Counted from the stretch's first letter, positions 47,526 to 64,000 are shown. The stretch: DNA of 64,000 bases from an uncultured Candidatus Rokubacteria bacterium (GCA_963758635.1 CAVWWD010000002.1:32001-96000), one strand, 5' to 3'. The notes: generated by a model not told the origin, from the letters alone. Program-made: numbers and translations.

Positions 47526-47740
47526 ATGACCCGGCGGGAACTGCGCACTCAGGGCGAGGCCACCCTCGCGGACCTCTTCGGATCGGACGCGCAGACGCGC
47601 GGCCTGGCGAACCTGCTGACCGAGGCGGTGTACGGGCTTGACGCAGACCGAGGTGGTGGAAGCGATCATCCAGACCGCGCCGGCCACCGGATTCCGCCGG
47701 CGCTCAACGCCCTGGGCGCCATCAGCGCCGTGTTCGGTAG
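47526..47740 (+). pseudogene. Carboxymuconolactone decarboxylase (CMD/AhpD-like) remnant with internal deletion
   Basis: MTRRELRTQGEATL..LTEAVYG joined out of frame to GLTQTEVVEAIIQTAP.TGF.PALNAL; the conserved middle is absent. Confidence 0.6.
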
Positions 47741-47839
47741 CGCCCGGGACGTGCGCTCCTCGGCGGGGGGCCTACCGAGGGAACCCATTCGACGACGTGG
47801 ACGAATGTCGTCGCTCTCCGGGGGCGAGGCCCGGGTTCC

Positions 47840-48307
47840 TCAGGAGGCGGCAGGCACACCGTCCCGAGGAGAAGGCCCTTTGGAACCGACCATGCGCGCC
47901 CTCGCGAGCCGCCCCGGGCGGACGATCACTTGCCACGAGTTGCCCAGGAAGACCATGGAGAGCCCGAGCAGGTTGAGCGCGATTGGCGTGATCTTCCCGG
48001 GCAACGGCGCATACACCCAGTACGCGAGGGTGCTCGTGGCCAGGAGTGGCACGAGGAGCAGAGCACGGGGCGGCCAGTGACGCTGCCATAGCCGAATGAG
48101 CGCTTCGCCCAGGTCGCCTTCGAGCCTCTTGTGGAGAACGAGCCATGACACCCACGCGGCCACGACCAGCGCGGGGAGCCATTGCTCCACCCACAGGGCG
48201 GACGTGACGAGCAGAAGCGTGCCGGCTCGCCGCCGGTGGCGGTCGTCGCTCACGGTCCCGGAGCGGATCATCGCGCCTGCGTGCTCGTCTCCATGCATCG
48301 CCGTCAC
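47840..48307 (-). CDS. Hypothetical membrane protein
   Basis: 155-aa ORF with 3-4 hydrophobic segments; GTGA overlap with the upstream gene. Confidence 0.55.
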   Translation of the reverse strand: MTAMHGDEHAGAMIRSGTVSDDRHRRRAGTLLLVTSALWVEQWLPALVVAAWVSWLVLHKRLEGDLGEALIRLWQRHWPPRALLLVPLLATSTLAYWVYAPLPGKITPIALNLLGLSMVFLGNSWQVIVRPGRLARARMVGSKGPSPRDGVPAAS

Positions 48308-48976
48308 GGGCCCTGATTGGCCCCGGGTATCAGGCGCGCTTCGCGAGTCCGCAGCCTGTCGAGCAGGGTGGCGAAGGAGGAGGTCTTGATGATCGAGCCG
48401 AACTGGCTCCGATAGCTGGAGACGAGGCTCACGTCTCCCGCGACGACGTCATAGACCGCCCATTGCCCCACGCTCTGCTGCAGGCGGTACTCGATCGGGA
48501 TCTCCGTGCGGCGGTCGGTGAGGATGCGAGAGTACACGCGGGCCGACGAGCCGTCGACGGACTCGCGCTGGAAGGTGATCGTCGCGAGACGGTAGCTCCC
48601 GATGACGGTCAGGTACGACCGCTCGAGGAGATTCGTGAAGAGGCGGACGAACTCCTCCTGCTCCTGCGGGGAACGGTCGCTCCAGTGCTGCGCCAGCGTC
48701 CGCCGGGCCATCTCGTTGAAGTCGAACAGCGTCACCGCGACCTCGCGCACCGCGGCTCGTCGCTCGTCCGTGTCCGGCTGCGACTTCACCAACGCCATCA
48801 CGCGTGAGACGGACGATTCGACCAGGCGTGAGCGGCCCTATCGACCCGGGGGAGGTGCTCTTCCCAGCGTCCTGGGCAGGGGCCGGCTGTGGTCCGAGCA
48901 CGAGGGCGGCCATCGCGATGGCGAGCAGGAGCAACCGGCGGACGTGACGCGCGAAGAACTCGGTGAGCTGGCTCAT
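48304..48976 (-). CDS. MlaC/Ttg2D family phospholipid-binding periplasmic protein (frameshift near 48825)
   Basis: Signal peptide, FDFNEMARRTL..W, FVRLFTNLLERSY, IEYRL, WAVYDV..VSLVSSYRSQF. Confidence 0.88.
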
Positions 48977-49056
48977 GACGTGGCACTCCTTCCGTGACGG
49001 GCGCGTGCGGCGTCTCCCACGGGCTCAGACTAGTCCTCGCGATTCCACCTGCCCAC

Positions 49057-49072
49057 CAGGACCTTGGTCCAA
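49057..49072 (-). promoter_or_regulatory. Regulon palindrome CAGGACCTTGGTCCAA; -10 TAGTCT at 49027-49032 (minus strand)
   Basis: 24-bp spacer to the hexamer; upstream of the mlaC-like gene. Confidence 0.75.
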
Positions 49073-49136
49073 TGCGCCGCCCCGACGGCGCCCGATGCCG
49101 GTCGCCGGAGGACGCTATCGCTTCCGCGGAAGACCG

Positions 49137-50313
49137 CTATTGGACCGGTCTCGCAAGGCGGGCGCGCGCAGCGGCGGACAGATCACTGTTGGGCTCGAGC
49201 ACAACGAGTCTGTCTCTCTTCAACTCTGCGACCGATCCCTCGTCTTCGTCGCCGTCGACGGGAGACTTGTCGGGGGCCTGCAAACGTCGCGCAACGATCC
49301 GGACGGCCGCCATCACGGGGGCGGCGAGGAACATTCCGGCCACACCCGCGATCTCACCGCCCGCCAGCACACCCACGATCACCAGAGCGGGATGGATGTC
49401 GATGCCGCGGGCCATGACGAGCGGGTTGACCGCGTAGTCCTGGATCAACCGCCATACGAGGATGAACAGCGCGAGCAGCCAGGGGTGCTCGTAGCCGGCG
49501 AACAGGCACACCCCGATGGCGACGACGCCGGCCGTCAGCGGGCCGACGACCGGAACGACCTCGAGGGCGCCGCCGATCCCGGCGAGAACGAGAGCGTACG
49601 GCGCGCCGGCGGCCAGGAATACCGCCGACCAGGCGACGAACGTGATCAGGGCCAGGAGCAGGAGCGCCCGGACGTACTGGCCGAGCAGAAGATGCAGGTC
49701 CTCGGCGATGCCCCACCACACGCGCCGGCGGCGCCCTTCATGACCGAGTCGCCATATCGCCGTCGAGGTGAATCGCTCGAACGTCCTTCAGGATGAAGAA
49801 CGCGAGGACGGGGATGAGCACGATGACCCACGCCCCGGCGAGCCACTTCAGGACCGACGCCGCGGCCTGTTGAGCGTAGAGGACGATCTCTCCCATGTGG
49901 CTCTGCACCAGCCGGTCGATCTCGCGGATCTGCTGCGACTCCCATCCCCCACGCGCAAGGAAACCGACGACGATCTCGCCGTTCTGGATCCGCTTGGTCA
50001 TCTCCGGAAGCTTCTGCGCCAGCCCCTGGACCTCGGCGGCCAGGCGTGGCCCGACGGCGATCGCGGCCCCGCCGAGAATCGCGAGGACCACCAGGTACAC
50101 CACCACGATCGTCAGCGCCCGGCTGCGGATCCCCCGCCGTTGCACGAAGTGGACAAGGGGGAACAACAGGTACGCGAAGAACAGGGACAGCGCGATGAGG
50201 AAGAGCACCTGCCGCAGGGCATAGGCCAACCCGAGGGCGGCGAGCAACACCAGGATGGTCCATGTGACTCTCACCGCCCGCAGGTCGAGGCCGAACCGGC
50301 TACTCCGGAGCAT
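49137..50313 (-). CDS. AI-2E (PerM) family transporter (frameshift near 49780)
   Basis: LFFAYLLFPLV, IPVLAFFILKD, YVRALLL, LEVVPVVGP, IQDYAVNPLVM, IHPALVI, GVAGMFLAAP. Confidence 0.88.
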
Positions 50314-50350
50314 CGATCGGAACTCTAGCTCGCCCGGGGCGGCCGACCTA

Positions 50351-50366
50351 TTGGACGAAGGTCTAA
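50351..50366 (-). promoter_or_regulatory. Regulon palindrome TTGGACGAAGGTCTAA; -10 TAGAGT at 50322-50327 (minus strand)
   Basis: 23-bp spacer; upstream of the AI-2E gene. Confidence 0.7.
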
Positions 50367-50466
50367 ATCCGCCTCACGTCACCAGTCCCGCGTAGCATGA
50401 CTCGCCCGCGTAGCATGTGACCCGCCCTCCTCAGGCAGAGCCGCCTTGACGGACGGGGACGCGGCA

Positions 50467-50482
50467 CTAGACGTAGGTCCAA
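50467..50482 (+). promoter_or_regulatory. Regulon palindrome CTAGACGTAGGTCCAA; -10 TAGAGT at 50506-50511
   Basis: 23-bp spacer; upstream of the 23-aa micro-protein. Confidence 0.7.
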
Positions 50483-50532
50483 TGTGTGGGCGGCGTCATG
50501 ACGGCTAGAGTGACGGGAGAGGAGGACAACTC

Positions 50533-50604
50533 ATGAACATCTTCTACGTCATCGGGGTCGTCGTCGTGGTGCTCGCTGTCTTTGGATACCTCAGGCTCGG
50601 CTAG
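50533..50604 (+). CDS. 23-aa single-TM micro-protein MNIFYVIGVVVVVLAVFGYLRLG
   Basis: Strong GGAGGAGG RBS, promoter directly upstream, one hydrophobic helix; below the ORF-track cut-off. Confidence 0.7.
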   Translation: MNIFYVIGVVVVVLAVFGYLRLG

Positions 50605-50705
50605 AGTTCGCCACGTCTGGGCTTGCCCCAGACGCAAAATCGCTCTGGAGCCCCGCGTTGGATCGGGGCCATGCAGTGGTCCGGTGAACAAGGAAAGGAG
50701 AGCCT

Positions 50706-50894
50706 GTGAGCTTGATAGGGATCGTGCTGACGCTGGTGGTGGTCGGGGTGCTGCTCTGGCTGCTGAACAACTACGTGCCCATGGATGGGAAGATCAAGTC
50801 GATCGTCAACGTCGTGGTTGTCATCGTCGTTGTGATCTGGGTGTTGCAGGCCGTCGGCCTTCTCGGGTCCTTGCAGAACATCCGTATTCGGTGA
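50706..50894 (+). CDS. Small two-TM membrane protein (Thivi_2564-like family)
   Basis: LVVVGVLLWLLNNYVPMDGKIKSIVNVVVVIVVVIWVLQ; AAGGAG RBS. Confidence 0.8.
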   Translation: MSLIGIVLTLVVVGVLLWLLNNYVPMDGKIKSIVNVVVVIVVVIWVLQAVGLLGSLQNIRIR

Positions 50895-50928
50895 CGCGCA
50901 GGTCCGGTGCGATGTGGACGCAAGGGGA

Positions 50929-50954
50929 AGGGGCGCGCCCGGCGCCGCGCCCCT
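50929..50954. terminator. GC-rich hairpin between convergent genes
   Basis: AGGGGCGCG/CGCGCCCCT 9-bp stem, no U-tract. Confidence 0.35.
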
Positions 50955-51027
50955 GCTCAACGGGGGTGAGCGACAGAACCAGCCGAGACGCGTCAATCCG
51001 GCGAGGCGGGGAGCTCGAGGACGCCTC

Positions 51028-52890
51028 TCAGGCGTTCGCGGTGCCCTGCGCGGCCAGGAGCGCGGTGAGCGTGTCGCGATCCACGACTTCCTGTTCGATC
51101 AGCACCTTCGCCAGCGTCTCGAGCACGTTCCGCTTCGCGGTCAGCGTTTCCCGGACGCGATCGTGGCCCGCCTGCAGCAGGGCCCGGACCTCCCGGTCGA
51201 TCATCCGGGCCGTGTCCTCGCTGTACACCCGCTCGGTGGGGTTCGGACCGTTGAGGAACAGCGCCTGGCGAGGACGCTCGAACGTTCCCAGGCCCAGCGC
51301 ATCGCTCATCCCGTATTGCGTCACCATGTGCCGCACGAGATCGCTCGCCCGCTGCAGATCGTCGTGCGCCCCTGTCGAGACATCCCCGAAGATGATCTCC
51401 TCGGCGACCCGCCCGCCGAGGAGCACGTCCAGCCGGTCCAGGAGCTCCGCCCGCGTCATCAGGTACCGATCCTCCGTCGGCTGCTGCTGCGTGTAGCCAA
51501 GCGCCGCCACCCCGCGCGGAATGATCGATATCTTGGCCACCTTGTCGGCCCGTTCCCGCGACTCGGCGACCAGAGCGTGGCCGGCCTCGTGGTGAGCGAC
51601 GATCTCCTTCTCCTTGGGGCTGATGATCCGCGACTTGCGCTCGAGACCCCCGACGATCCGGTCGATGGCCTGGTCGAAGTCCGCGGCGTCCACCGCCTCC
51701 TTGTCCTCGCGCGCGGCGTGGAGCGCCGCCTCGTTGACGAGGTTCGCGAGGTCGGCGCCCACGAATCCCGGTGTGCGCGCCGCGATGAGGGACAGGTCGA
51801 GTGCCGGGGCCAGCGTGACCGTTCGCGTGTGGACCTGGAGGATCTTGGTCCGGCCCTTGAGGTCCGGTCGATCGATGACCACCTGACGGTCGAATCGACC
51901 GGGGCGCAGGAGGGCCTGATCGAGGATCTCCGGGCGATTGGTGGCGGCGAGGATGATGACGCCGGCTCGCGAGTCGAACCCATCGAGCTCCGCGAGGAGC
52001 TGGTTGAGGGTCTGCTCGTGTTCGTCGTGTCCCCCGAAGCCGGGGGTGATCCCCCGAGCCTTTCCGACGGCATCCAGCTCGTCGATGAACACGATGCTCG
52101 GCGCCTTCGTCTGCGCCTGGGCGAACAGGTCGCGCACGCGGGCGGCTCCCACACCGACGAACATCTCCACGAAGTCGGATCCGTTCAGGCTGAAGAAGGG
52201 GACTCCCGCTTCCCCGGCCACGGCCTTGGCCAGCAGGGTCTTCCCGGTTCCCGGCGCCCCGACCAGCAGCACTCCCTTCGGGATCTTTCCGCCGAGTCGC
52301 CGGTAGCGCTCGGGCCTCTTCAAGAAGTCCACGATCTCCATCAGCTCACCGCGGGCCTCGTCGATGCCCGCGATGTCGTCGAACGACACCCCCGTCTTCT
52401 GCTCGACGTAGACCTTGGCCCGGCTCTTGCCGAGGCTCATGAGCCCCTTCTGCGGATTCATTCGGCTCACGAGGAAGAACCAGAGGCCGAAGAAGATCGC
52501 TGTCGGCACGATCCATGACAGAAGGGTGAAGAGCCACGTGCTCTCGGTATGCCCCGTGAAGCGGACGCGTGCGACTTCGAGCTCGGGCACGAGGGCGGCG
52601 TCCTCGACGCGCGTCGTCACGAACGCGTACGTACCCTTCCCGAGGCGCTTGATCTTCTCGATCTTCTCCTTCGAAAGGATGGCGTCGAGGCCCGCGGGCG
52701 ACAGCGCCCCTTCGATGGTGTCCCGGTACAGGGCCACCTCGGAGACTTTTCCCGCTTTCAGGAGGGCCTTGAACTCGCTGTACGAGATGTTGTCCGGATG
52801 GGGCGCCAGGAACAGCGCCTGGCCGCCCACGAAGACGGCGATCGCGATCAGTGCGTACCACACGGAGAACGTCCGCTGCTTCAGTTGCAT
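51028..52890 (-). CDS. ftsH: ATP-dependent zinc metalloprotease FtsH
   Basis: Two TMs, [36 protein letters not shown]. Confidence 0.96.
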
Positions 52891-52974
52891 GGTCCCTCTT
52901 GCAGGCCCGCGGCGGGACGGCGGATCGACGCTCGGCGGTGGTGAGCGTCCCGTACGCGAGGTCGAGGTCGGGAG

Positions 52975-53415
52975 CTACGGCACCTTCGACGAGAAGGTGA
53001 CGCGTCGATTGGAGGCCCGGCACGCCGCCGTGCTCTCCGTGCACGCGGGGCGCTCCCCGCTGCGTGACTGGATCTCGAGCCGATGCGCCTTCACGCCCCG
53101 CGACACGAGATAGGCCTCGGCCGCGCGCGCCCGGTCTCGGCCCACCTCCGCGCTGAGAGCGCGAGCTCCCGGCTCGTCGGTATGCCCCTCGATGAGGAGC
53201 CCCCGGTGTCCGGCCCGGCTGAGCCACACGACGTGGGCGTCGAGGACCGTTCTGTCACGCGGACGGATGTCCGTCGTCCCCGCATCGAAGTAGATCGGCT
53301 TCAGGGTCGTGGCGTTCACCGGCGCACCCTGCACTTGTGGATAGCTTGCGACAATGGCGACCAGGGCCATGACGACGGGAGCCACGAGACATGCGGTTCT
53401 CCAGCCTCTCGACAA
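52975..53415 (-). CDS. OmpA/Pal-like peptidoglycan-binding domain protein
   Basis: PIYFD, IEGHTDE, RARAAEAYLVSRGV, GERPAC..CRASNRRV. Confidence 0.82.
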   Translation of the reverse strand: MSRGWRTACLVAPVVMALVAIVASYPQVQGAPVNATTLKPIYFDAGTTDIRPRDRTVLDAHVVWLSRAGHRGLLIEGHTDEPGARALSAEVGRDRARAAEAYLVSRGVKAHRLEIQSRSGERPACTESTAACRASNRRVTFSSKVP

Positions 53416-53501
53416 GCCAAGTCTCCTAGTCCCGCCTGATCTCCGCGGCTCGCCGAGCGGTCCGCACCTGTGAATCTAGTCTCTCGCCCGCTGCGTGCCT
53501 A

Positions 53502-53517
53502 TTGGACCTTGGTCGCC
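53502..53517 (-). promoter_or_regulatory. Regulon palindrome TTGGACCTTGGTCGCC; -10 TAGATT at 53473-53478 (minus strand)
   Basis: 23-bp spacer; upstream of OmpA-like gene and ftsH. Confidence 0.72.
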
Positions 53518-53531
53518 CTGCCGGTAGCCAC

Positions 53532-55602
53532 TCATCGCTCCTCCTCACGCCGCGCCGCGGCCCCGCTGGTGTCATCGTAGAGGCGGTCCTGGGCGCGAAG
53601 GGCGGGCTCGCCATCGGCCCGGATGCGGACGGATCGACCGTCCGGGAGGATGCGCCGGGCCTTCACCGTGTCGGCGAGCTGGATCTCGAGGATCTCCTGG
53701 ACGCGAGACTGCAGGCCGGGATCCAGCACCGGGAAGGCGATCTCCACCCGGCGGTCCAGGTTCCTGGGCATCCAATCCGCGGAGGCGAGGAGGCACTCCG
53801 GCTGCCCGGCGTTGGCGAAGTGGACGATGCGCGCGTGCTCGAGGTACCGATCGACGATCGAAATGACCCGAACGTTGGCAGAGAGGCCCGGCACCCCGGG
53901 ACGAAGGCAGCAGATGCCGCGCACGATCAAATCAATCGTCACGCCCGCGCCGCTGGCGGCGTACAGCTCCTCGATCAGCCGGCGGTCCACGAGACCGTTC
54001 ATCTTCGCGATGATCCGCGCCGGCCTCCCGGCCCTGGCATGGCCGGCCTCCCGGCGGATGCGCTGGACGAGCCCGTCGCGCAGATCGGCGGGCGCGACGA
54101 GCAGGTGATGGAAGCGGGGCGGCCGTGCGCAGCCGCTCAGGCGGTCGAACAGCTCGGTGACGTCCTCGCCGAACGAGACGCGGCTCGTGAAGAGGCCCAG
54201 GTCGCCGTAGAACGTCCCCCGTCCGCGCGTTGTAGTTGCCCGTGGCGAGGTGGCAGTAGAGCCGGACCCCGTCGGCTTCCTGCCGGACGACGAGGCAAGC
54301 CTTGCAGTGGGTCTTGTATCCCGGGAGGCCGTGGACCACGTGCGCACCCACCTTCTCGAGCTCGCGGGCCCAGCGGATGTTCGCCTCCTCGTCGAATCGG
54401 GCCTGGAGCTCGACGAGCACGGCCACCTTCTTCCCGTTCTCGGCCGCCGTGCGCAGGGCCTGGGCGATAGGCGAGGCCGGGCTCACCCGGTAGAGCGTCA
54501 TCTTGATCGCGAGGACGGCGGGATCGAGGGCGGCCTCGCGCACGAAGCGAGTGACGCTGGCGAAGGCCTGGTAGGGGTGATGCACGAGGACGTCCCTGGC
54601 GCGGATCGCGCTCCAGATGTCCGGCGCGCGCTCGAACGCCGCGACGGAGTGCGGCGGGCGCGGCCCCTCCTTGAGCCGGGGCAGGTCGACGGCGGCATAG
54701 AGCTGGAGCAGATCGGTGAAGGCCGTGAAGCCCGTGCTCGCGTAGAGGTCCTCGGGCGCCAGCTCCAGCTCGTCGACCAGCGTGGCCAGGACGTCGGCGG
54801 GCAGCTCCGCGTCGTACTCGAGGCGCACCGCGGCGCCGAGGCGGCGGTCGCGCAGGCTCGCCTCGATGCTCGCGATCAGATCCTCGGCGCGGCCCCGCGT
54901 CGCCAGGGTCGCGTCGCGAGTCACGCGGATCGCGTGGCTCCATACGACATCGCGGCCTCCGTGGATGCCCGACAGGTACGGCCGGATCGCGTCCTCGAGC
55001 AGCATGAAGGCGTGCGGGCGAACGGAATCGGGCACGGCCACGAAGCGCGGCAAGGCTGGGCTCGGCACGTGGATCACAGAAAGCGAGCTTGCGGCCATCG
55101 CCGAGGCGGCGGCCGGGCGGATCGAGGCGACGATACACAGCGATCGGTTGCCGAGGTAGGGGAAGGGACGGCCGGGGTCGACGGCCAGGGGCGTCAGCGT
55201 GCCGGGCAGCAGGCGACGGACGTGCTGTTCGACGAAGCGCCGCTGCTCGGCGGTAATGTCCTGGTGCCGGAGGAGGACGATGCCTTCCGCGGCGAGGAGC
55301 GGCAGGATCTCGAGGAAGCAGCGGCGGTGCTCGTCGACGAGCTCGTGGACCCGGCCCGCCACCGCCGCCAAGGTCTCCGCCGGCGTGAGCCCGTCGGGCC
55401 CCGCCTGCGCCTCGCCCGCGTCGATGCGGCGCTTCAGCGCGGCCACGCGGACCATGAAGAACTCGTCCAGGTTCGCGCTGAAAATGGCCAGGAACTTCAC
55501 GCGCTCGAGGAGGGGCACGCTCGGATCCTGTGCCTCCTCGAGCACCCGGCGATTGAACTCCAGCCAGGACAGCTCGCGATTGACGAACGCCGCCTCGGTC
55601 AC
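53532..55602 (-). CDS. ppk1: Polyphosphate kinase 1 (frameshift near 54220)
   Basis: NRELSWLEFNRRVL, NLDEFFMVRVA, HHPY, IKMTLYR, ARFDEEANI, KTHCK, TGNYN, RYLEHAR, SADWMPRNL. Confidence 0.93.
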
Positions 55603-55603
55603 G

Positions 55604-56567
55604 TCAGTCCCGCGTATTGAACGTCTCACGCAGGAGGATGCCGTCACGGACTCCCCGCGTGCAGACGACGAGCGTCAGGTATCCGCCGAAGACCATGGTC
55701 TCCTCGATCACCATTGCTCCAGCCAGGATGATGTCGGCGCGCTCGGACTTGAGGCCGGGGACCTTCTCACGGTCGTGGTGCGTGAGGCCTTCCAGGCGCT
55801 CGCGCACCGCCGTGACGTCGGACTGTCGGAGCGAGAGCCCGTGGCGGTGCTTGCGGGCGCCGCGGCGGGCGCGGAGATGGACGCGGGCGAGGCTGCGCAC
55901 GATGCCGCCGAGGCCGACCAGGACCTCGCCGGGCGCAGCGACGGGCAGAGCGCCTCGGAGCTGCTCGCGGATGGCGCCCCGGAGGGCGTGGACCTCGCGT
56001 GGGGTGGGCGGATCGTGCCGGAGAAGACCTCGCGTGCTGCGGATGGCTCCAAGCGGGAGGCTCGCGCTGGACACGATCCTGCGCGCCCGGACCCGGCTGA
56101 GCTGCAGGCTGGCGCCGCCGAGGTCCGCGACGGCCCCGTCCTTGAAGGGGAGGCTCTCGAGCGCCGCGCAGACACCCAGCCGCGCCTCGTCCCGGGCGCT
56201 CAGCACGTGCACCGTGATGCCCTCGTTGCAACGGAGGGGATGGAGCAACTGTTCCTGGTTGCGCGCGTCCCGGACGGCCGAACGTCGCCACCGCCACGAC
56301 GCGCGGGCCACCGCCACTCGGCGAGACCCGCGCCATGAAGTGGTGGACGGCCCGAAGGGTCTGGTCGATCGCCGCGCGGGGCAACGTGCCGGGCGGGCCG
56401 CCACCCAGCCGGGTCGGCACCCGTTCCTCCGCCAGCACACGGTAGCCGGTGCCCGGGGTGATCCGGGCGAGCAGAAAGCGAACGGCGGTCGATCCCAGAT
56501 CGACCACGGCCACCAGCTCCGCCCGCTCAGCCACGCGAGGGCGCACAGGTTCCGAGATCCACGACAC
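55604..56567 (-). CDS. ppx: Exopolyphosphatase Ppx/GppA family, short form (frameshift near 56283)
   Basis: VVDLGSTAVR, VATSAVRDARN, DEAR, DLGGASLQ, RADIILAG, GVRDG; AAGGAGG RBS. Confidence 0.88.
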
Positions 56568-56692
56568 TCCTCCTTCAGGGGCGGCCGCCAGTCCCGATAT
56601 CCGCCCCACACCCGGAAGGCCCCAAGCGCGGACCAGCATGAGAAGGAGATCGCGATCGCCTGCACTCTAGCCAGGCCGATTCACCCCGCCCA

Positions 56693-56708
56693 TTGGACCT
56701 TCGTCCAG
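56693..56708. promoter_or_regulatory. Regulon palindrome TTGGACCTTCGTCCAG with -10 hexamers on both sides (TAGAGT minus 56664-56669; TAGACT plus 56733-56738)
   Basis: 23-bp and 24-bp spacers; lies between divergent genes. Confidence 0.78.
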
Positions 56709-56800
56709 TGTTCTGCCCGTGGAGTCGATCCTTAGACTGTGGGGGTGGGGAAGACGTCGCGGCGGCGGTTCGATACCTGGGTTGAAATCGGGAGAGAGAC

Positions 56801-57148
56801 GTGGCAGAGATAAGCGGCCTCATGACGGAGCTCAATGACCTTCGCGAGCAGAAGCATCTGACGTGGAGCGAGCAGGAGGCCGGATGGATCGGGACGCCGG
56901 CCGCGATCTTGGACGCGCTCGTCCGTGATGGATACGAGGAGTGCCAGCGCGAGACCACGACGAGTCATCGCGATGGCCGCCCGGCCGGCGGCCTCTGGCG
57001 GGGAGTCAACCCGCGCACGGGATCCGTGGCGTCGGCGATCTGGGTGACGCGCCCGGCGGCGGCAGCCTTGGTGTTCATCCAGATCGATGGGGAACTGGTG
57101 GCACGACCGGGGAGGGGGCCGCATGAGGAGGAAGGCGGGCAGGGCTGA
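56801..57148 (+). CDS. Hypothetical protein
   Basis: 115-aa ORF with plausible composition and purine-rich RBS. Confidence 0.6.
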   Translation: MAEISGLMTELNDLREQKHLTWSEQEAGWIGTPAAILDALVRDGYEECQRETTTSHRDGRPAGGLWRGVNPRTGSVASAIWVTRPAAAALVFIQIDGELVARPGRGPHEEEGGQG

Positions 57149-57248
57149 CGCTTGCCGGGCCGCAGGCTCGAATCTATGAGGAGGCCACAATGAAGAACGT
57201 TTCTACGATGACTCTGCCGTGCCCCCAGGTCCCGTGGGGCCGCCGCCG

Positions 57249-58001
57249 ATGATCGAGCTCGGGATCATCTTCCTTGTGACCATGGCGCTCACGCAGACCG
57301 CGGTCCTCGCCACGACGGTCTACCTGCATCGCGCCCTCGCGCATCGCGCCCTCGTCGTCCACCCGGTCACGGACGTCTTCTTCCGGACCGCCCTCTGGCT
57401 CACGACGGGCTTGAGCCGCCAGCAGTGGGTGGCTGTCCATCGCAAGCATCACGCCTTCACCGACCGGGACGGCGATCCTCACAGCCCGCGGCTGCAAGGC
57501 ATCTGGCACGTCCAGATCCTGAACGCCTACTACTACATGCGGGAGGCACGGAACCCCGAGACGCTGCGGAAGTTCGCGGCGGACCTCCCCGAAGACCGGC
57601 TGGATCGCCTGCTCTTCTCCCGGGGCTGGTGCGGCCTCGGGATCGGGATCACGCTGCTTTGCCTCGTCCTCGGTTTCTGGCCCGGACTCATCGCCAGCCT
57701 CGTGCATGCCATCCAGTACGTCTTCATCGTGGCCCCGCTCATCAACGGCCTGGGACATTGGCGAGGAGCACAGAACTTCGCGAGCAACACCGCGTACAAT
57801 TCACGCGTGCTCGCCTGGCTGACGGGGGGCGAAAGCCTCCACAACAACCACCATGCGCATCCGCGGGCGCCCAAGTTCAGCATGAGACGCTTCGAGTTCG
57901 ATCCGGCGTGGCTCGTGATCCGCGCCCTGGCGCGAATCCGTGCCCTCGCGATCCTCGGGACGACGGTCAGGCTGCAGACCGGCGCGGGGCCGGCGCGGTG
58001 A
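57249..58001 (+). CDS. Membrane fatty-acid desaturase (delta-9 acyl-CoA/lipid type)
   Basis: His boxes HRALAH, HRKHH and HNNHH; DPHSP; GESLHNNHHA. Confidence 0.92.
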   Translation: MIELGIIFLVTMALTQTAVLATTVYLHRALAHRALVVHPVTDVFFRTALWLTTGLSRQQWVAVHRKHHAFTDRDGDPHSPRLQGIWHVQILNAYYYMREARNPETLRKFAADLPEDRLDRLLFSRGWCGLGIGITLLCLVLGFWPGLIASLVHAIQYVFIVAPLINGLGHWRGAQNFASNTAYNSRVLAWLTGGESLHNNHHAHPRAPKFSMRRFEFDPAWLVIRALARIRALAILGTTVRLQTGAGPAR

Positions 58002-58084
58002 CCGTGGACGGCGGGGAGCGCGCCACGCGCGACGACCGCGCACCCTCGAATGGATCGACCCTGAATGTCTCGAAGGGGAGGGAC

Positions 58085-58453
58085 ATGCAGGCACTGAAAC
58101 GGATCGGCCCGCCCGTGCCGACGGGTGTGCGCGGCGACGAATACGACCTGAGCGTTCCCCTGAACGGCACGCCTTCCGTGGACTGGCGGCGCGCGTTCCA
58201 CGCCTCCGAGAAATCGACCGAGCTGTGCCATCCGACTCGCGTCACGGTGAAGGACCGCGCGCTGACCTTCACGAGCGAGGAAGACCACGTGCGACTGTGG
58301 ATCCAGCTCATCGACGAGTGGATTGCTGGCGCGAATCAAGCGTGCGCCGAGCGGCCCACCTCCACGTCGAGACGCGAGGTCGAGCAGAGCGACGACGAGC
58401 GCGAGCGCCAGCGGCGGATTCGGGAGGCGGTGGAACGCTTCAAGAACCTGTGA
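58085..58453 (+). CDS. Hypothetical protein
   Basis: 122-aa ORF MQALKRIGPP.. with GGAGG RBS. Confidence 0.65.
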   Translation: MQALKRIGPPVPTGVRGDEYDLSVPLNGTPSVDWRRAFHASEKSTELCHPTRVTVKDRALTFTSEEDHVRLWIQLIDEWIAGANQACAERPTSTSRREVEQSDDERERQRRIREAVERFKNL

Positions 58454-58472
58454 CGCTCGCTCGAGACGGCCC

Positions 58473-58488
58473 CTGGACCAAGGTCCAG
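58473..58488 (+). promoter_or_regulatory. Regulon palindrome CTGGACCAAGGTCCAG; -10 TAGCCT at 58512-58517
   Basis: Perfect 7-bp arms; 23-bp spacer. Confidence 0.8.
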
Positions 58489-58549
58489 TAGGGCCACCCT
58501 GCCCGCTGCTGTAGCCTGACCTCACCGAGGACGCACGAAGGAGGAGACC

Positions 58550-58810
58550 ATGCACGTTCTACTCTTCATCCTGATCGGGTTGGTGGCAGGCGCGCTGGCC
58601 GGGCGGGTGGTGAGCGGCCATGGCTACGGCATGGTGGGGAACTTCGTCGTCGGAGTTCTCGGCGCCGTCCTGGGCGGATGGATGTTCACCACCTTCGCCG
58701 GCGTGACGAGCGGAGGAGTGTCCTTCAGCCTCTTCACGGCGCTCCTCGGCGCGGTCGCGCTGCTCTGGGTCGTCAGGCTGGTCGCCCCCGCCCGCGGCTT
58801 GAACCCCTGA
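58550..58810 (+). CDS. GlsB/YeaQ/YmgE (transglycosylase-associated) stress-response membrane protein
   Basis: LIGLVAGALA..GYGMVGNFVVGVLGAVLGG..ALLGAVALLW; AAGGAGG RBS. Confidence 0.88.
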   Translation: MHVLLFILIGLVAGALAGRVVSGHGYGMVGNFVVGVLGAVLGGWMFTTFAGVTSGGVSFSLFTALLGAVALLWVVRLVAPARGLNP

Positions 58811-58841
58811 AACCACACTCGATGTCTCGAGGAGGCCACCA

Positions 58842-59084
58842 ATGCTGCGTTTCATCTTGGGGGCGATCATGGGCGGTGTCGCGGTCTGGGCATGGCGAGA
58901 CGAGCTCCGTGAGTACATCGCCGACGGCACCCGCGGCCTGAGGACGACGGCGGCCGACCAGCTCCAGGCGGTCCAGACAGCCGCGGAGGGCGCACTCAAC
59001 ACCGCGAGGGATGGGATCAGCTCCGGCCTGCAAAGTGGGCAGGACGCGATCCGCCCGGAGGACGCATCGCGACCGGCACGATAG
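58842..59084 (+). CDS. Small protein with N-terminal TM and amphipathic tail (YtxH-like)
   Basis: MLRFILGAIMGGVAVWAW followed by an Ala/Gln-rich helix; GAGGAGG RBS. Confidence 0.6.
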   Translation: MLRFILGAIMGGVAVWAWRDELREYIADGTRGLRTTAADQLQAVQTAAEGALNTARDGISSGLQSGQDAIRPEDASRPAR

Positions 59085-59124
59085 TCCGTTCCCGCTCCGA
59101 ACACCCGCACGAGGAGGAACCGTC

Positions 59125-59358
59125 GTGAATAGAGCATCCGCGCTTCCCGTGGCCGTCCACGTGCCACACCTGTTCCCTCGAGCCCTGGTCCGGACGGCAA
59201 GGTCGGGGATCTATCTCGTCCGTGGGGTTCCACGCGACCTGCAGCGCACGGCGCGCGCCCGGGCGGCGCGGGAGACGACCACCTTGAGCGCCGTGCTCCG
59301 GCAGGCCTTGCGCGAGTACGCCGCCGGTACCTGGACGCCCGAACCCGCCGACACATGA
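59125..59358 (+). CDS. Small ribbon-helix-helix (FitA/Arc-like) protein
   Basis: YLVRGVPRDLQRTARARAARETTTLSAVLRQALREY pattern; GAGGAGG RBS before GTG. Confidence 0.6.
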   Translation: MNRASALPVAVHVPHLFPRALVRTARSGIYLVRGVPRDLQRTARARAARETTTLSAVLRQALREYAAGTWTPEPADT

Positions 59359-59388
59359 TGTGACGGCCGTTGCGCGGCCGTTGCGGCA

Positions 59389-59404
59389 CTGGACCTTGGT
59401 CCAC
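59389..59404 (+). promoter_or_regulatory. Regulon palindrome CTGGACCTTGGTCCAC; -10-like GAGACT at 59428-59433
   Basis: 23-bp spacer; upstream of the ORF at 59478. Confidence 0.75.
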
Positions 59405-59477
59405 TACCGTCTTTGCGGCGCCGGCTAGAGACTGACGTAGGGATCCGCCAAGAGAGCGGCCCTGGAGGAGGTGTCTC

Positions 59478-59849
59478 ATGCGAGTGCCAGTGTGGATCAA
59501 ACCGATGGTATGGGGCGGCGTCTTGGGCGCGATCGGGATCATGATTGTCGGATTCTCCTGGCTGGGGTGGACGCTCGACCACACGACCAAGAGACTCGTG
59601 ACGGAAGGCAGCGAGTCGGCCGTGGTCACTGCGCTGACTCCGTTCTGCGTCGCGAACTACATGAAGCAGCCCGACGCCGCTCAGAAGCTCGCCGTGCTCC
59701 GCGCCGACTCCTCGTCGTACACACAGCGCGAGATCATCGAAAAGGCCGGATTCGCAACCATGCCCGGAAAGACCGAACCAAGCTCAGGACTGGCGGCGGC
59801 CTGTGCGACCGCGCTTCAGACCGTCAGCCTTGCCGTCCCGAGCAAGTAG
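59478..59849 (+). CDS. Hypothetical membrane-anchored protein with two cysteines
   Basis: WIKPMVWGGVLGAIGIMIVGFSWLGW, LTPFCVANY, GFATMPG, LAAACA; GGAGGAGG RBS. Confidence 0.75.
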   Translation: MRVPVWIKPMVWGGVLGAIGIMIVGFSWLGWTLDHTTKRLVTEGSESAVVTALTPFCVANYMKQPDAAQKLAVLRADSSSYTQREIIEKAGFATMPGKTEPSSGLAAACATALQTVSLAVPSK

Positions 59850-60150
59850 TCGACGATAAGGCCACGCGGCCGCGCGCTCGGGCGGAGACGCCCGGGCCGC
59901 GCCGCCTCAGGCCTACTCGTCCGTCCGCCTTGCGGGCGTGAAACGCCAGGCGGAGCTCCGCAGCGGATCAGCCGCGCGGGTCAAGAGATCGATCCCGTCG
60001 GGCCACGCACATACTCGCGCTCGATCTCCGCGATGATCTCGCGGCGCTCAGAACGGGTCCACCATTCGCTCGTCCTACGACGGGACGCAGAACTCGGCCG
60101 TCATAGCGGAGGTCGGCTCGCCGCCGCTCCGGCGCGTGCTGACCCGCGCA

Positions 60151-60166
60151 CTGGACCAAGGTCCAC
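60151..60166 (+). promoter_or_regulatory. Regulon palindrome CTGGACCAAGGTCCAC; -10 TAGGCT at 60191-60196
   Basis: 24-bp spacer; upstream of the ORF at 60301. Confidence 0.78.
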
Positions 60167-60300
60167 TACGTTGCCCACGCGGGTGGCTGCTAGGCTGATG
60201 GCGTTCGCGCCACACCCACGGTTCGCGCACGAGACGATCCGATCGCGCCGGAGCCACACAGTCGGTGAACATATCGGACGATGCGCTCGGGAGGCCCTCC

Positions 60301-60489
60301 ATGGCGAAGTTCATCCAGATCTGCGCATCACAGAACGATCTGTTCGCTCTCGACCAGGACGGGGGCGTCCATCAGTACGACTTCAACACGAAGACGTGGG
60401 CGCAGCTCGCCCTGGACCGCCGCGACGAGGCGCCTTCGCGAAGTGACCGTCAGGCGAGCGGCGGCGCGCCGTGGGGGAGGCCGCCGTGA
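60301..60489 (+). CDS. Small hypothetical protein (62 aa)
   Basis: MAKFIQICASQNDLFALDQDGGVHQYDFNTKTW; GGGAGG RBS. Confidence 0.65.
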   Translation: MAKFIQICASQNDLFALDQDGGVHQYDFNTKTWAQLALDRRDEAPSRSDRQASGGAPWGRPP

Positions 60490-60624
60490 TCTCCGGCGAT
60501 TGCCCCAGTCAGATGGCTATCCCGTCGCAGTCTTCGCGTCCGCCCGTGAGTTCCTCGCCTCCGGGCCGCTCGGTCGCCTCGGCTGCCTCGTCCTGGACAT
60601 CCGCCTCGGGGAGATGACGGGCGG
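60480..60624 (+). pseudogene. Remnant of a FixJ-like response-regulator receiver domain
   Basis: RRDLRRLPQSDGYPVAVFASAREFLASG..GCLVLDIRLGEMTG; no start codon and no C-terminal half. Confidence 0.6.
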
Positions 60625-60646
60625 TTACCGCATTCTACGAGGGTCA

Positions 60647-60850
60647 TCAGACCTGCACGAGCGCCTTCCCGTTGGCCCCGAGCCACTCCACCACCTTGGC
60701 CCACGCAACAGGCTCCCGCTCCGTCCATGCCCTCACCGCCTGGGCGGGAACGACCACGTATGCGCGCTCAGGGTGCGCGGCCGCTTCCACCAGGCGGGCG
60801 AGATCGGTTCGGGATTGTCGAAGCTCCACGAGCAAGTCGCTGGTCGTCAT
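60647..60850 (-). CDS. Small hypothetical protein (67 aa)
   Basis: MTTSDLLVELRQSRTDLARLV..; CAGGAG RBS. Confidence 0.6.
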   Translation of the reverse strand: MTTSDLLVELRQSRTDLARLVEAAAHPERAYVVVPAQAVRAWTEREPVAWAKVVEWLGANGKALVQV

Positions 60851-60970
60851 GAGTTCTCCTGGGAATGCAGCAATGGATTCAGCACCGGTCGGCAGCACGG
60901 GGTCGCGACCCTCACCCCGGCTTGGAGTGCGCCCTCTCGGGAGCCTATCTGGCCGCTCGTCGGCGCGCCA

Positions 60971-60986
60971 TTGGACCTTGGTCAGG
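60971..60986 (-). promoter_or_regulatory. Regulon palindrome TTGGACCTTGGTCAGG; -10 TAGGCT at 60942-60947 (minus strand)
   Basis: 23-bp spacer; upstream of the ORF at 60850. Confidence 0.72.
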
Positions 60987-61129
60987 GAGCGCTCCGCTCC
61001 CTGATACTCACGCAGTCGTGATCGGCGAGGCCGCCCGGCTCATCAGCCGTGCTCAGGTTTCAGGGAGGCTCCGGGTTGTTGGCGACAACTCCAGATAGCG
61101 CGCTGGCGGTGCCGGACCCGCGACCGAGC

Positions 61130-62236
61130 TCAAGGCACGAACGCAAGGAACAAGAACGCCGCGAAGAGCACGAGGTGCACCGCCCCCTGCATCACGTAGG
61201 TGCGGCCGGTGCCGAGAGTGAACGCGCTCACCAGAAACGTCAGCATGAGCATCGCCATGTCCGCCGGCCCGACGCCCAGGACCAAGGGCAACTGGAAGGC
61301 GATCGATGCCAGTACCACGACGGGAACGGTGAGACCAATGCAGGCGAGCGCGGAGCCGATCGCAAGATTGATGCTGGTCTGAAGTCGATCGGCCCGGGCG
61401 GCCCGCACCGCGGCCCACGTTTCCGGCAGCAGGATCAGCCCGGCGATCACGATCCCGACCACAGCCCTGGGCGCATCGGCGGCCTCGACCACGCCCTCGA
61501 TCGTGGGCGAAAGCATCTTGGCAAGACCCACGACCGCCACGAGTGAGAGGAGGAGCAACCCGGAGCTCACCCATGCCTCCAGGGCCGTCGGCGGCTCGGC
61601 ATGCACGTCCAGGTTGTCCGCGCCGGCCGCCGGGATGAAATAGTCCCGATGGCGTACGGTCTGAACGAAGATGAAGATCGCCCAGAGCACGGCGGCCGTC
61701 ACGGCCACGAATCCGAGTTGCGAGCCGCTGTACGTGCCGGCGGGCGTGCTTGTCGTGAACACCGGCAAGACGAGCGTGAGGGTAGACATCACGATCAGCG
61801 CCGCAAGCCCTGCGCCAGCTCCCTCGATGCGGAAAGTCTGCTCTCGGTGCGCAAGACCGCCGAGGAGCACGCATATGCCTACGACACCGTTGCAGATGAT
61901 CATCACGGCGGCGTAGATCGCGTCGCGCGGCAGAGCGGCCATGTCCTCGCCGCCTGCAATCATCATCGACAGGATGAGCGCGGTCTCGATCGCGGTCACG
62001 GCCAAGGCAAGCACGAGCGTGCCGAGGGGCTCGCCCACGCGATGCGCGATGACTTCGGCGTGGTGGACCGCTGCGATGATCGCCCCGACCAGAGCGGCGC
62101 CGCACAGCACGGCGAGCAAGGTTCCCACGCCCGCGACGACCGCAGCCACGAGCAACGCGAGCGCCAACACGGGGACAAGCCAGGTCCAGAGAGGGATGGT
62201 TCGTCCTTGGCCCGGTGGTGTGGGCGTCACCACCAT
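61130..62236 (-). CDS. Ca2+/H+ antiporter ChaA-like (CaCA family)
   Basis: AVHHAEVIAHRVGEPLGTLVLA, RDAIYAAVM, LLPE, SINLAIGSALA, QGAVHLV. Confidence 0.9.
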   Translation of the reverse strand: MVVTPTPPGQGRTIPLWTWLVPVLALALLVAAVVAGVGTLLAVLCGAALVGAIIAAVHHAEVIAHRVGEPLGTLVLALAVTAIETALILSMMIAGGEDMAALPRDAIYAAVMIICNGVVGICVLLGGLAHREQTFRIEGAGAGLAALIVMSTLTLVLPVFTTSTPAGTYSGSQLGFVAVTAAVLWAIFIFVQTVRHRDYFIPAAGADNLDVHAEPPTALEAWVSSGLLLLSLVAVVGLAKMLSPTIEGVVEAADAPRAVVGIVIAGLILLPETWAAVRAARADRLQTSINLAIGSALACIGLTVPVVVLASIAFQLPLVLGVGPADMAMLMLTFLVSAFTLGTGRTYVMQGAVHLVLFAAFLFLAFVP

Positions 62237-62264
62237 CCCCCCACGCCGGGAATCGCGCAAGGGT

Positions 62265-64000
62265 TCATCCGCGCTCAGTCAGGTCTCGGGAAGGATCCGG
62301 GCTGTGGCGGGTCAGCACCTCGGCGAGGTCCGCAACGGTCGGCGTCTCGAGAAGCAGCCCGAGGGGCAGCGCGACCTGGAATCGCTCGATCACGCGGGAT
62401 AGGACCCGGGTCGCGGCGAGCGAGTGGCCCCCGAGATCGAGGAACGGGTCGTGGACGCCCACGCGGTCGAGGCCGAGCACGTCGGCCCAGATCGAGACCA
62501 AGGCCTCTTCCGTGACGGTGCGGGGCGCCTGAAACGCCACGTCGAGCTCTGGTCGCTGGCGCCCGGGATCGGCCAGGGCGCGCCGGTCGACCTTTCCGCC
62601 GGCGGTCAGCGGCAGTGCGTCGAGCCGGACGTAGGCTGACGGCAGCATGTAGTCGGGCACCCGGCCCGCGAGGGCGCGGCGGAGCTCGCCGATGGACAGC
62701 GGTCCGCCACGTTCGGGAACGACATGGGCCACGAGACCGGTCGCGCCCGTATGGTCCGCTCGCGCCGTGACCACGGCTTCCTTCACCGTCGGCAGGGCGA
62801 GGAGCGCGGACTCGATCTCCGCCAGCTCGACGCGGTTTCCCCTGATCTTCACTTGCTGGTCCGTGCGCCCCAGGTGGAGGAGGCCGCCGTCCGCCCGCAT
62901 GCGGCCGAGGTCTCCGGTGGGGTAGGTCACGCAGCCCGGCTCGGTCGGATCGGGCACGAAGCGAGCGCGCGTGAGCTCGGGTTGTCTCCAGTATCCCGGA
63001 GACAGATACCGGCTCCGGACGACGATCTCACCATGGCCGCCGGGGCTCACCACGCCGCCGTCGTCGTCGCGGAGCGTGATCTCCACGTCGTCGACCGGAT
63101 AGCCCACCGGCACCAGGTCATCCACTTCCGGGTAGGCGCCATCGAAGAAGCAGGTACACAGCGTGCCGGTCTCCGTGCTTCCCAGCCGGACCATCAGGAT
63201 GGTCGGCGTCGCGCGCCAATGGGCACGATACAGGTCGAGGTCGGCCCGGGTGACCGAGTCCGACCCGAGCTGGATGAGCCGCAGCGCCGGCAGCTCCGCG
63301 ACCCCGCCCAATCCGGCCACCCACTGGCGGAACACCGCGGGGACGGAGAAGTACACGGTGATCTCGTGTCCGGCCAGCCATGGCGTCAGCTGGTCGAGGC
63401 CCTGCCGCGCCAGGTCGAAGGGACAGAGCGCGGCGCCGTTCAGCAGCGCGGCGAGCGTGATCTTCAGGCCCTGGCTCGCGTGGCAGGGATAGAGGAGCGC
63501 GAGGCGATCCTCGGCGCAGATGCGCAGGCCGTTGGCGTAGAGCATGGCCTCGTGGAGCCCGTTCCGATGATTCTGCGTCACGCCCTTCGGCTGTCCCGTG
63601 GAGCCCGAGGTGTACACGATGTACGTGAGGTCGCCGGGCGCGATCGGAAGCGCGGGGTCGCTCGCGGGCAGCTCCGGGTCGAGCGCGTCGAGGTCCAGGA
63701 CCCGGCAATTCGCCGGCGCATGCGCGGCCCCGGTCGCCAGGCTCGCCCCGTCGGTGAGCATGAGCGGCGCCTGCGAGTCCGCGAGGACGGCTTCGATCCG
63801 CGCCCCGGGCCAGGACGGACCAAGCGGCACGAACAGCTTGCCCGCCTTGAGGATGCCGAGGAGCGCCGCGATCATGGCGGCGCCGGTCGGCAGGAGCAAC
63901 GCGATCGGCTCCTGGATCGAGCCCCGCTCGCGCAGCACCGCGTGGGCGATGCGGTTGGCGCGGCGGTTCAGCGCCTCGTACGTCAGCGTCTCGCCGGGGG
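62265..64000 (-). CDS. NRPS-like adenylation + carrier (A-T) protein, 5' end outside the window
   Basis: LTYEALNRRANR, YIVYTSGSTGQPKGV, YPTGDLGR, GRTDQQVKIRG, PLTAGGKVDR, FLDLGGHSL. Confidence 0.9.
   Translation of the reverse strand, partial: PGETLTYEALNRRANRIAHAVLRERGSIQEPIALLLPTGAAMIAALLGILKAGKLFVPLGPSWPGARIEAVLADSQAPLMLTDGASLATGAAHAPANCRVLDLDALDPELPASDPALPIAPGDLTYIVYTSGSTGQPKGVTQNHRNGLHEAMLYANGLRICAEDRLALLYPCHASQGLKITLAALLNGAALCPFDLARQGLDQLTPWLAGHEITVYFSVPAVFRQWVAGLGGVAELPALRLIQLGSDSVTRADLDLYRAHWRATPTILMVRLGSTETGTLCTCFFDGAYPEVDDLVPVGYPVDDVEITLRDDDGGVVSPGGHGEIVVRSRYLSPGYWRQPELTRARFVPDPTEPGCVTYPTGDLGRMRADGGLLHLGRTDQQVKIRGNRVELAEIESALLALPTVKEAVVTARADHTGATGLVAHVVPERGGPLSIGELRRALAGRVPDYMLPSAYVRLDALPLTAGGKVDRRALADPGRQRPELDVAFQAPRTVTEEALVSIWADVLGLDRVGVHDPFLDLGGHSLAATRVLSRVIERFQVALPLGLLLETPTVADLAEVLTRHSPDPSRDLTERG

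Follow-up and report, generated by a model that had tools for sequence, protein, structure and literature searches.

Nine palindromes in a gene island of Candidatus Rokubacteria as probable sites of a FixJ/StyR-type response regulator

Which protein reads a set of nine 16-bp palindromes that stand at a fixed distance from -10 hexamers in an uncultured Candidatus Rokubacteria bacterium, and what does it control? The palindromes (boxes) lie in a gene island within a stretch of 64,000 nucleotides (GCA_963758635.1, CAVWWD010000002.1:32001-96000; the window), mostly encountered in soil metagenomes among the sequencing runs that contain it. The answer reached here, held with good confidence and drawn from sequence comparison, is that the nine boxes are binding sites of a response regulator (RR) of the FixJ/StyR subfamily, which would activate probable general-stress genes from a position upstream of -35. 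In the following, G000 is this assembly, other G numbers are genomes of the same order and L numbers are fetched loci.

The nine copies were found at the coordinates given by the initial annotation and all of them are intergenic (Table 1). Allowing up to three mismatches, the palindrome has 10 matches in the window compared with 1.11 expected, and none of 100 shuffled sequences reached ten (maximum 4). The tenth match, at 1227, carries three mismatches, falls within a long open reading frame (ORF) and is missing from the combined box-plus-hexamer scan, so the claim that the first 48 kb is free of copies holds in effect. The consensus first proposed, YTGGACC-WW-GGTCCAR, was right about the palindromes and too strict in its wording, since only one of the nine (58473) matches it exactly; a working consensus built from 235 oriented sites, with core and hexamer preset by the search pattern, reads (A)YTGGAC-SWWS-GTCCAV(T), and its promoter-proximal half-site is better conserved than the distal one. 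A related contig (X14 record 14) showed 13 listed differences from the window. Ten of them fall in the 96-bp spacer that surrounds box 6, the box itself has none, and two affect free positions of the hexamer, a weak pattern that would arise about 1 time in 10 by chance. Between boxes 2 and 3, at 50389-50417, the short sequence CCCGCGTAGCATG occurs twice as a direct repeat, with 17 bp between the copies.

The ten hexamers and their 23- or 24-bp spacers are exactly those initially listed, with the box at 56693 serving both directions. Taking the hexamer as -12 to -7, the predicted box centre lies at -43.5 or -44.5 and the predicted span from -51 to -36, and none of the ten promoters has a -35 that matches better than 4 of 6 (range 1-4), compared with a generic upstream set in which 30 of 184 hexamers have a 5-6 of 6 match; the activator geometry proposed earlier (a centre near -43 and no -35 consensus) is supported if the hexamer is the -10. 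A two-part matrix (box, spacer and hexamer) trained on the window was scanned across the whole genome at spacers of 15 to 35, and the matches scoring at least 21 peaked at spacer 23 (13 matches) and spacer 24 (6 matches) against 0-2 for each other spacer, nine of these 19 being outside the training set. Nineteen of the 20 genome-wide matches scoring at least 20 are intergenic according to a gene caller covering 77% of the genome. When the spacer was left unconstrained, 118 of 122 TA...T hexamers behind boxes in the genome's own and related loci stood at 22-24 bp, with a -10 consensus of TA(G/C)NNT. RNA-library contigs from four studies overlap parts of the island, some spanning box 6; these contigs show neither starts, strand nor level and for that reason are not taken as evidence of expression.

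No LuxR-type helix-turn-helix (HTH) was found on the window's contig, as the initial annotation had held in stating that the window encodes no intact cognate activator. The islands of relatives lie next to a GAF histidine kinase gene, behind which comes a FixJ-type RR and, in many cases, a receiver-only gene (kinase-RR pairs adjoin box clusters in G003, G016, G017, G018, G019, G020, G022 and G032), and the operon that travels with the box consists of the GAF kinase, the RR, a box and the receiver-only gene, a layout resembling fixLJT. The listing of CRP/FNR and NarL/LuxR genes that had been proposed as a check gave no Crp HTH above cut-off in G000 and a FixJ-type RR as the regulator that tracks the motif. 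RR domains were assigned by Pfam Response_reg and GerE on the two RRs encoded on C6 of G000 and by NCBIfam and PDB matches for those of L214 and G016. The closest solved full-length relative is StyR (1yio, E 4e-51, versus 1.4e-12 for DevR), which places the likely reader in the FixJ/StyR subfamily rather than with DosR; the LuxR-type HTH that had been predicted stands, and the DosR-like subfamily does not. The top NCBIfam match is FixJ, at 204-224 bits and below the cut-off of 255. The HTH has its best PDB match in EL222 (recognition helices EKTVKMHRG and EKTVKVHRG), and the nine cores fit the published EL222 site consensus RGNCYWWRGNCY (PMC10521638) at 11-12 of 12 positions. RRs with an E-K-x-x-K recognition helix have a box within 3 kb in 70 of 88 cases and RRs without the first lysine in none of 19, a biased rate because the loci were picked by box or kinase and many are short.

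Among 80 metagenome loci fetched with the kinase on C11 of G000, an RR that extends to the HTH is present in 57 and a box in 41, often directly behind the RR gene or ahead of the kinase, and this placement suggests autoregulation of the kinase-RR genes. C11-type kinases have a GAF domain and a weak ABC_sub_bind match, no PAS, and score 180 bits against the FixL cut-off of 850; their PDB matches span the kinase core only, which is closest to FixL, and no DosS/DosT chain was present among the 49 PDB matches. KaiC-like ATPase and hybrid kinase genes also adjoin the kinase-RR pair in several relatives (L043:5517-8871, L040:14150-15673, L088).

Across the order, box plus -10 was detected in 53 of 124 genomes, compared with 5 of 124 for a reversed-pattern control. 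According to tallies transcribed by hand from the tables, the pattern occurs in 49 of 75 genomes with a FixJ-type RR and in 4 of 49 without one (Fisher p 7e-11, overstated because kin genomes are not independent); it is present in 40 of 45 genomes having a close RR (E about 1e-68 or better) and in 9 of 30 having distant RRs only. Tracking was also seen within genera, with three genomes holding both and three neither in g37, and one of each in g39 and g20. The scan of the genome and its relatives by a bipartite matrix, proposed with the first description, has returned both the 23/24 peak and conservation in the order. Similar target genes and regulators occur in Rokubacteria records, and at least 79 loci were found in species genomes of Acidobacteria, alpha-, beta-, gamma- and deltaproteobacteria, Planctomycetes and others. 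Among the 79 listed, a full-length FixJ-like RR lies within 6 kb in 19 (two of which overlap) and an ErdR-like RR in one; six are flagged inside ORFs, an intergenic status that is soft because the gene calls used this genome's codon model, which is unreliable on non-relatives. Some of these cross-phylum matches are probably chance or CrbR-type regulons. In Proteobacteria the genes behind the boxes differ (NhaA, GltS, an AspT-type antiporter, cytochrome bd, sulfatases). In Stenotrophomonas (L048, L081, L087, L099, L100, L069, L104, L106, L109) box and -10 precede CoA-transferase and TonB-receptor genes, and in L063 an ErdR-like RR (204 bits) stands beside the box; these cases point to a probable CrbR/ErdR regulon in Xanthomonadales.

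Several observations weigh against this assignment of the reader, besides the selection of loci behind the helix tally, for which the boxes of L067 fall just past the 3-kb limit. Four genomes have a box without a detected RR, and nine, G000 included, have a box with only distant paralogues; one of the order, G036, is 99% complete and carries a strong box island with a distant RR only, in an island that stops at a contig end. Conversely, 26 genomes carry the RR but do not show the strict pattern; in two of these (G007, G034) boxes next to the RR came up once the scan was loosened. The EL222 consensus is degenerate, and elsewhere (Stenotrophomonas, L063) the same box is read by other regulators. 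Finally, the third position of the -10 is G in 93 of 118 box promoters compared with 98 of 381 generic upstream regions, a bias that bears on the choice of sigma factor.

The genes behind the boxes are probably general-stress genes, as judged by their families. In relatives, 60 loci yielded 118 sites, four of these sites being inside ORFs. A gene was called behind 88 of the sites, and these genes fall into 69 target clusters (35 proteins were named by Pfam, the others by earlier annotation or inspection). The leading clusters are GlsB/YeaQ (10 genes), the receiver-only protein (8), superoxide dismutase (7), GroES (6), MlaC (5) and GroEL (5), followed by DUF3309-like, lmo0937-like, OmpA, BON, DedA/VTT, DksA-like, LapA, universal stress protein (USP) and Crp/Fnr clusters; the same islands also hold ferritin-like, CBS, PRC-barrel, YihY and trehalose-synthase genes. 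Many of these are families that we take to be general-stress genes. The regulon reaches beyond the window, with boxed targets elsewhere in the genome comprising a DUF3309-like micro-protein and a second AI-2E, Hsp20 and an lmo0937-family protein. The stress/dormancy regulon proposed at the outset is borne out as a clustered, stress-type set and not as a dormancy one, only 1 of the 69 clusters being USP-type. Neither acs nor actP is present among the window targets or the 69 clusters. A conserved hydrophobic micro-protein of 23-24 aa, with no Pfam or NCBIfam family, stands directly behind a box in several genomes, with 23 aa in the window and as similar 24-aa ORFs at L073:9046-9120 and L294:3750-3824. 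In one relative (G099) an operon that follows a box includes a Crp/Fnr gene (L306:13184-13837), which hints at a FixJ-to-FixK-like cascade in some relatives.

Table 1. Boxes and genes of the island (window coordinates; boxes with the hexamer they serve, aa, amino acids).
Feature	Position	Strand	Hexamer and spacer (bp)	Faces	Remarks
Box 1	49057..49072	-	TAGTCT 49027-49032, 24	MlaC-like gene	
Box 2	50351..50366	-	TAGAGT 50322-50327, 23	AI-2E gene	
Box 3	50467..50482	+	TAGAGT 50506-50511, 23	23-aa micro-protein and Thivi_2564-family gene	
Box 4	53502..53517	-	TAGATT 53473-53478, 23	OmpA-like gene and ftsH	
Box 5, divergent	56693..56708	.	TAGAGT 56664-56669	ppx-ppk1	
Box 5, other side			TAGACT 56733-56738	115-aa ORF, desaturase, 122-aa ORF	
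Box 6	58473..58488	+	TAGCCT 58512-58517	GlsB/YeaQ gene	sole exact match
Box 7	59389..59404	+	GAGACT 59428-59433	123-aa membrane ORF	weakest -10
Box 8	60151..60166	+	TAGGCT 60191-60196, 24	62-aa ORF	
Box 9	60971..60986	-	TAGGCT 60942-60947	67-aa ORF	
MlaC-like gene	48304..48976	-			leader and MlaC domain in different frames, break near 48800-48830; Pfam MlaC E 1.6e-40
AI-2E family transporter	49137..50313	-			two frames, break near 49780
23-aa hydrophobic micro-protein	50533..50604	+			
Thivi_2564 family membrane protein	50706..50894	+			NCBIfam NF041949, 68.5 bits, cut-off 33
FtsH protease	51028..52890	-			intact; TIGR01241 776 bits
OmpA/Pal-like protein	52975..53415	-			
Polyphosphate kinase ppk1	53532..55602	-			two frames, break near 54215
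Ppx/GppA phosphatase	55604..56567	-			two frames, break within ~56280-56440; start read from sequence
115-aa ORF, no known family	56801..57148	+			homologues in relatives' islands
Fatty acid desaturase	57249..58001	+			Pfam FA_desaturase E 1.3e-18
122-aa ORF, no known family	58085..58453	+			
GlsB/YeaQ/YmgE (Transgly_assoc) membrane protein	58550..58810	+			commonest target cluster in relatives
80-aa small membrane ORF, no known family	58842..59084	+			
Small ribbon-helix-helix-like ORF	59125..59358	+			Pfam FitA-like ribbon-helix-helix E 0.004
123-aa membrane ORF	59478..59849	+			similar-looking cluster behind box in 5 relatives' loci
62-aa ORF, no known family	60301..60489	+			
Receiver-only protein relic	60506..60622	+			residues 22-60 of the L214 protein, 67% identical
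67-aa ORF	60647..60850	-			similar-looking ORFs behind boxes in G016

The island has a G+C content of 68.2% (G000:C2:79500-94300, window 47500-62300) compared with 70-72% for the contigs, and it is flanked at 61130-64000 by Ca2+/H+ exchanger-type (Na_Ca_ex) and AMP-binding/PP-binding (nonribosomal peptide synthetase-like) genes with no box in front. Between 48304 and 56567 the MlaC-like, AI-2E, ppk1 and ppx genes are each split between frames and ftsH among them is intact.

The state of the system in this genome is illustrated by a second locus. At C11:58211-60703 the assembly has a kinase whose C-terminal part shares 60-66% identity with the kinases of the G003, G016, G020, G022 and G032 islands (54-56% for the C6 kinase). 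A 15-codon stub that resembles the beginning of the RR (C11:58167-58214) starts in overlap with the kinase stop. Locus L214 has a kinase 85% identical to that of C11, followed by an intact RR, a box with -10 and a receiver-only gene. G000 aligns to both flanks of L214 without the 624 bp lying between two CCGGT words, therefore the RR and the box are gone and only the -10 remains. The loss is clean (G000:C11:58164-58214, L002:8165-8215, versus L214:885-1556), and the surviving -10 hexamer forms the stop codon of the stub. The missing piece has no match elsewhere in the assembly except the two C6 paralogues, and a degenerate pattern for the RR stub retrieved 0 metagenome records. To the absence of a cognate activator from the window can thus be added that the usual regulator gene has been deleted elsewhere in the assembly. 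Because the C11 kinase is present, its RR is a 15-codon stub and two C6 paralogues remain, the balance tips somewhat towards an island that is orphaned or only cross-read by those paralogues.

The C6 paralogues belong to a second FixJ-type system (G000:C6:72000-97000; L030, L031) made of a MASE1-GAF-PAS kinase, two full RRs and two receiver-only genes. Its neighbourhood includes tkt/pgi/glk-like, MscS and Ysc84 genes, and boxes of the variant form TRRGAC occur there at C6:77558 and 84811; in this genome no hexamer stands at 23-24 bp from these variant boxes. A gene set at C7:411000-434000, in which the reading frame is broken several times, comprises an Orn/Lys/Arg decarboxylase, AspT-type antiporters and RND efflux, and by gene content the C6/C7 system and gene set look related to acid stress.

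The explanation that survives best, to which we would give a chance close to even if a little under it, keeps the same reader family and considers the regulon fully live: the C6 paralogues would read the window boxes, or an intact copy was left unassembled, or the C11 gap is an assembly error. It is compatible with the mechanism favoured here. The genome is 87% complete and the window boxes are well kept, which both also weigh against decay; both C6 RRs keep the E-K-T-x-K helix, and mixed boxes exist that have one half of each variant. On the other hand, in a FastTree tree the L214 RR is placed in the clade of the island RRs (support 0.92) and the C6 RRs form a separate clade (0.91), whose members sit beside variant TRRGAC boxes, and the 5-bp repeat at both ends of the gap is what a deletion would leave. 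Frame breaks are also more frequent in box-bearing islands (6 of 18 testable genes, 3 of 10 in window-type islands alone) than elsewhere (6 of 87), counted with island boundaries drawn after the fact, and this excess fits decay. Related-DNA contigs differ by one base or a gap at or near some of these breaks (in the MlaC-like gene by one-base differences near 48827-48829), which fits either assembly error or strain-specific loss.

That an activator of the NarL subfamily, of CrbR/ErdR or DosR type, reads the boxes is unlikely. G000 has four NarL-type RRs, and work on CrbR describes an ACTU motif, a GAC-N4-GTC inverted repeat between -52 and -36 that is needed for activation (PMC5715377), of which the boxes are near twins: they match the PFLU5625 ACTU site at 8-14 of 16 positions, box 3 reaching 14. 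CrbS/CrbR (ErdR) of Pseudomonas and Vibrio shares with the candidate a LuxR-family RR with similar repeat and position. However, the CrbR protein is of the NarL subfamily, about 30% identical to the candidate (measured on the L063 ErdR-like protein), is paired with an SLC5-type kinase and controls acetate-use genes, whereas the boxed targets are without acs or actP. In the 87% complete G000 no ErdR orthologue was found (best 88 bits, cut-off 390; the L063 RR scores 204 bits), no high-scoring box-plus-hexamer match lies near any of the four NarL-type genes, and linkage and co-occurrence favour a FixJ-type RR. As to DosR, the literature describes K179, K182 and N183 reading GGGACT, a poor -35 and a box that has its centre near -43.5 (PMC13486717), and for OsdR of Streptomyces a comparison site and a stress-type clustered regulon (PMC5069765). 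DosR/DevR and the candidate share the predicted box position, a poor -35 and a K-T-x-K helix, which in the candidate would also read GGAC, and DosR/OsdR also a stress-type, clustered regulon. In the candidate both lysines are present and N183 is replaced by V. The boxes match the DosR core at 9-10 of 14 positions and the OsdR site at 6-8 of 16, in line with the 10 of 14 initially reported, but DosR is not the closest kind, being a distant RR (E 1.4e-12) whose comparison with the candidate is further weakened by the few USP genes in the candidate regulon.

Still less support is found for a box acting as a repressor operator, or for a half-box acting as the -35 of an alternative sigma factor, which is very unlikely. 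The TAG bias of the -10 and the better-kept proximal half would suit it, as would the presence in G000 of two further primary-like or group 2-like sigma factors. The genome holds three sigma-70 region 3 proteins; an RpoD paralogue of 454 aa (G000:C5:585349-586713) and a 314-aa group 2-like sigma factor (C5:230639-231583) could each explain the TAG-biased -10. Against such readings, the box stops at -36, clear of the -10 and the start, the promoters lack a good -35 that could be repressed, divergent promoters can share one box, and a spacer of 23-24 bp is too long for sigma-70-family promoters. Sigma-driven general stress regulons (SigB, EcfG, RpoS) overlap in target families with the candidate (GlsB/YeaQ, CsbD-like, BON, DUF3309, lmo0937-like, YihY, ferritin-like, trehalose synthase), families linked to general stress; they use a sigma-specific -35, while control in the candidate seems to lie with an activator site.

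It is highly improbable that the reader is a CRP/FNR protein or the window's small ribbon-helix-helix protein. The latter is encoded within the island (59125-59358) and a Crp/Fnr gene occurs in one relative's island; no Crp HTH scores above cut-off in G000, ribbon-helix-helix genes are found in 11 of 313 loci (two being the window itself) compared with boxes in 200 of 313, and both the ribbon-helix-helix gene (G019) and the Crp/Fnr gene (G099) lie behind a box, as targets would. The window ORF is judged to be an island gene and not the reader. Chance matches or dispersed repeats with no regulatory role, for which a short motif in a 70% GC genome and the many weak palindrome matches lacking a hexamer might speak, are rejected by the shuffle control, the spacer peak, the intergenic position, the unrelated flanks and the conservation in the order, and are barely credible.

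With the FixJ/StyR-subfamily RR retained as the preferred reader, the regulon can be compared with the remaining known systems. EL222 of Erythrobacter litoralis has a near-identical recognition helix (EKTVKxHRG), a fitting site and activation over -35, which occurs when the site overlaps -35 (PMC5001607), but it is a one-component LOV-HTH light sensor, whereas the candidate has a receiver domain, a GAF kinase and stress-type targets. StyR of Pseudomonas fluorescens ST, the nearest solved relative named above, activates as a phosphorylated dimer from a site at about -40 (PMC2442086); within StyS/StyR (and TodS/TodT) it differs by a helix, EVTVKVHR, without the first lysine and by the control of one catabolic operon. 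FixL/FixJ of rhizobia and Caulobacter shares the RR subfamily and the kinase-core affinity, but the candidate RR falls below the FixJ cut-off and has a different site and helix and a GAF rather than a PAS kinase; the boxes match the rhizobial FixJ site TAAGTAATTTCCCTTA (PMC4999443) at 2-6 of 16 positions. The regulon works like those of EL222, CrbR, StyR and DosR and does not belong to FixLJ, CrbSR or DosRST proper.

A mechanism can be proposed in which the GAF kinase would phosphorylate the RR, whose dimer would use its K-T-x-K helix to read both GGAC halves, in the manner of DosR and EL222. Centred at -43.5 or -44.5, the RR would recruit RNA polymerase in place of a -35 contact, and the box-driven receiver-only protein might act as a feedback phosphate sink or inhibitor. 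Judged by gene families, the output may protect the envelope, proteins and phosphate stores.

No description of the regulon was found in the literature searched, which was available in part and had RegPrecise, CollecTF, supplements and subscription journals outside it; atlases made by DNA affinity purification sequencing or by systematic evolution of ligands by exponential enrichment could already hold the box motif. The regulon is real, probably undescribed and of a known kind, and since its mechanism is familiar it would be a new regulon and not a new kind of system. The claim of an undescribed regulon accordingly stands as regards the regulon and yields as regards the motif, which fits EL222 and CrbR sites already known.

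A wider reading, offered tentatively and doubtful as a whole, is that Rokubacteria and other uncultured soil bacteria control their general stress response not by a stress sigma factor but by an activator box, through a patchy cross-phylum module made up of a GAF kinase, a FixJ-type activator whose helix is EL222-like and a receiver-only protein that provides feedback, that one lysine of the helix marks the readers of the box, and that this genome was caught mid-decay after losing the activator. What the finding provides is a testable reader, site and target list for a large unnamed FixJ/StyR-type branch that is frequent among uncultured lineages of soil, and several small proteins without a known family are thereby marked as probable stress genes. 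Additionally, the consensus of the optogenetic EL222 and the motif of CrbR are tied to a natural multi-gene regulon, for which specificity is predicted to hang on one residue, and cultured carriers of the box (Paraburkholderia and Caballeronia records) make the regulon testable.

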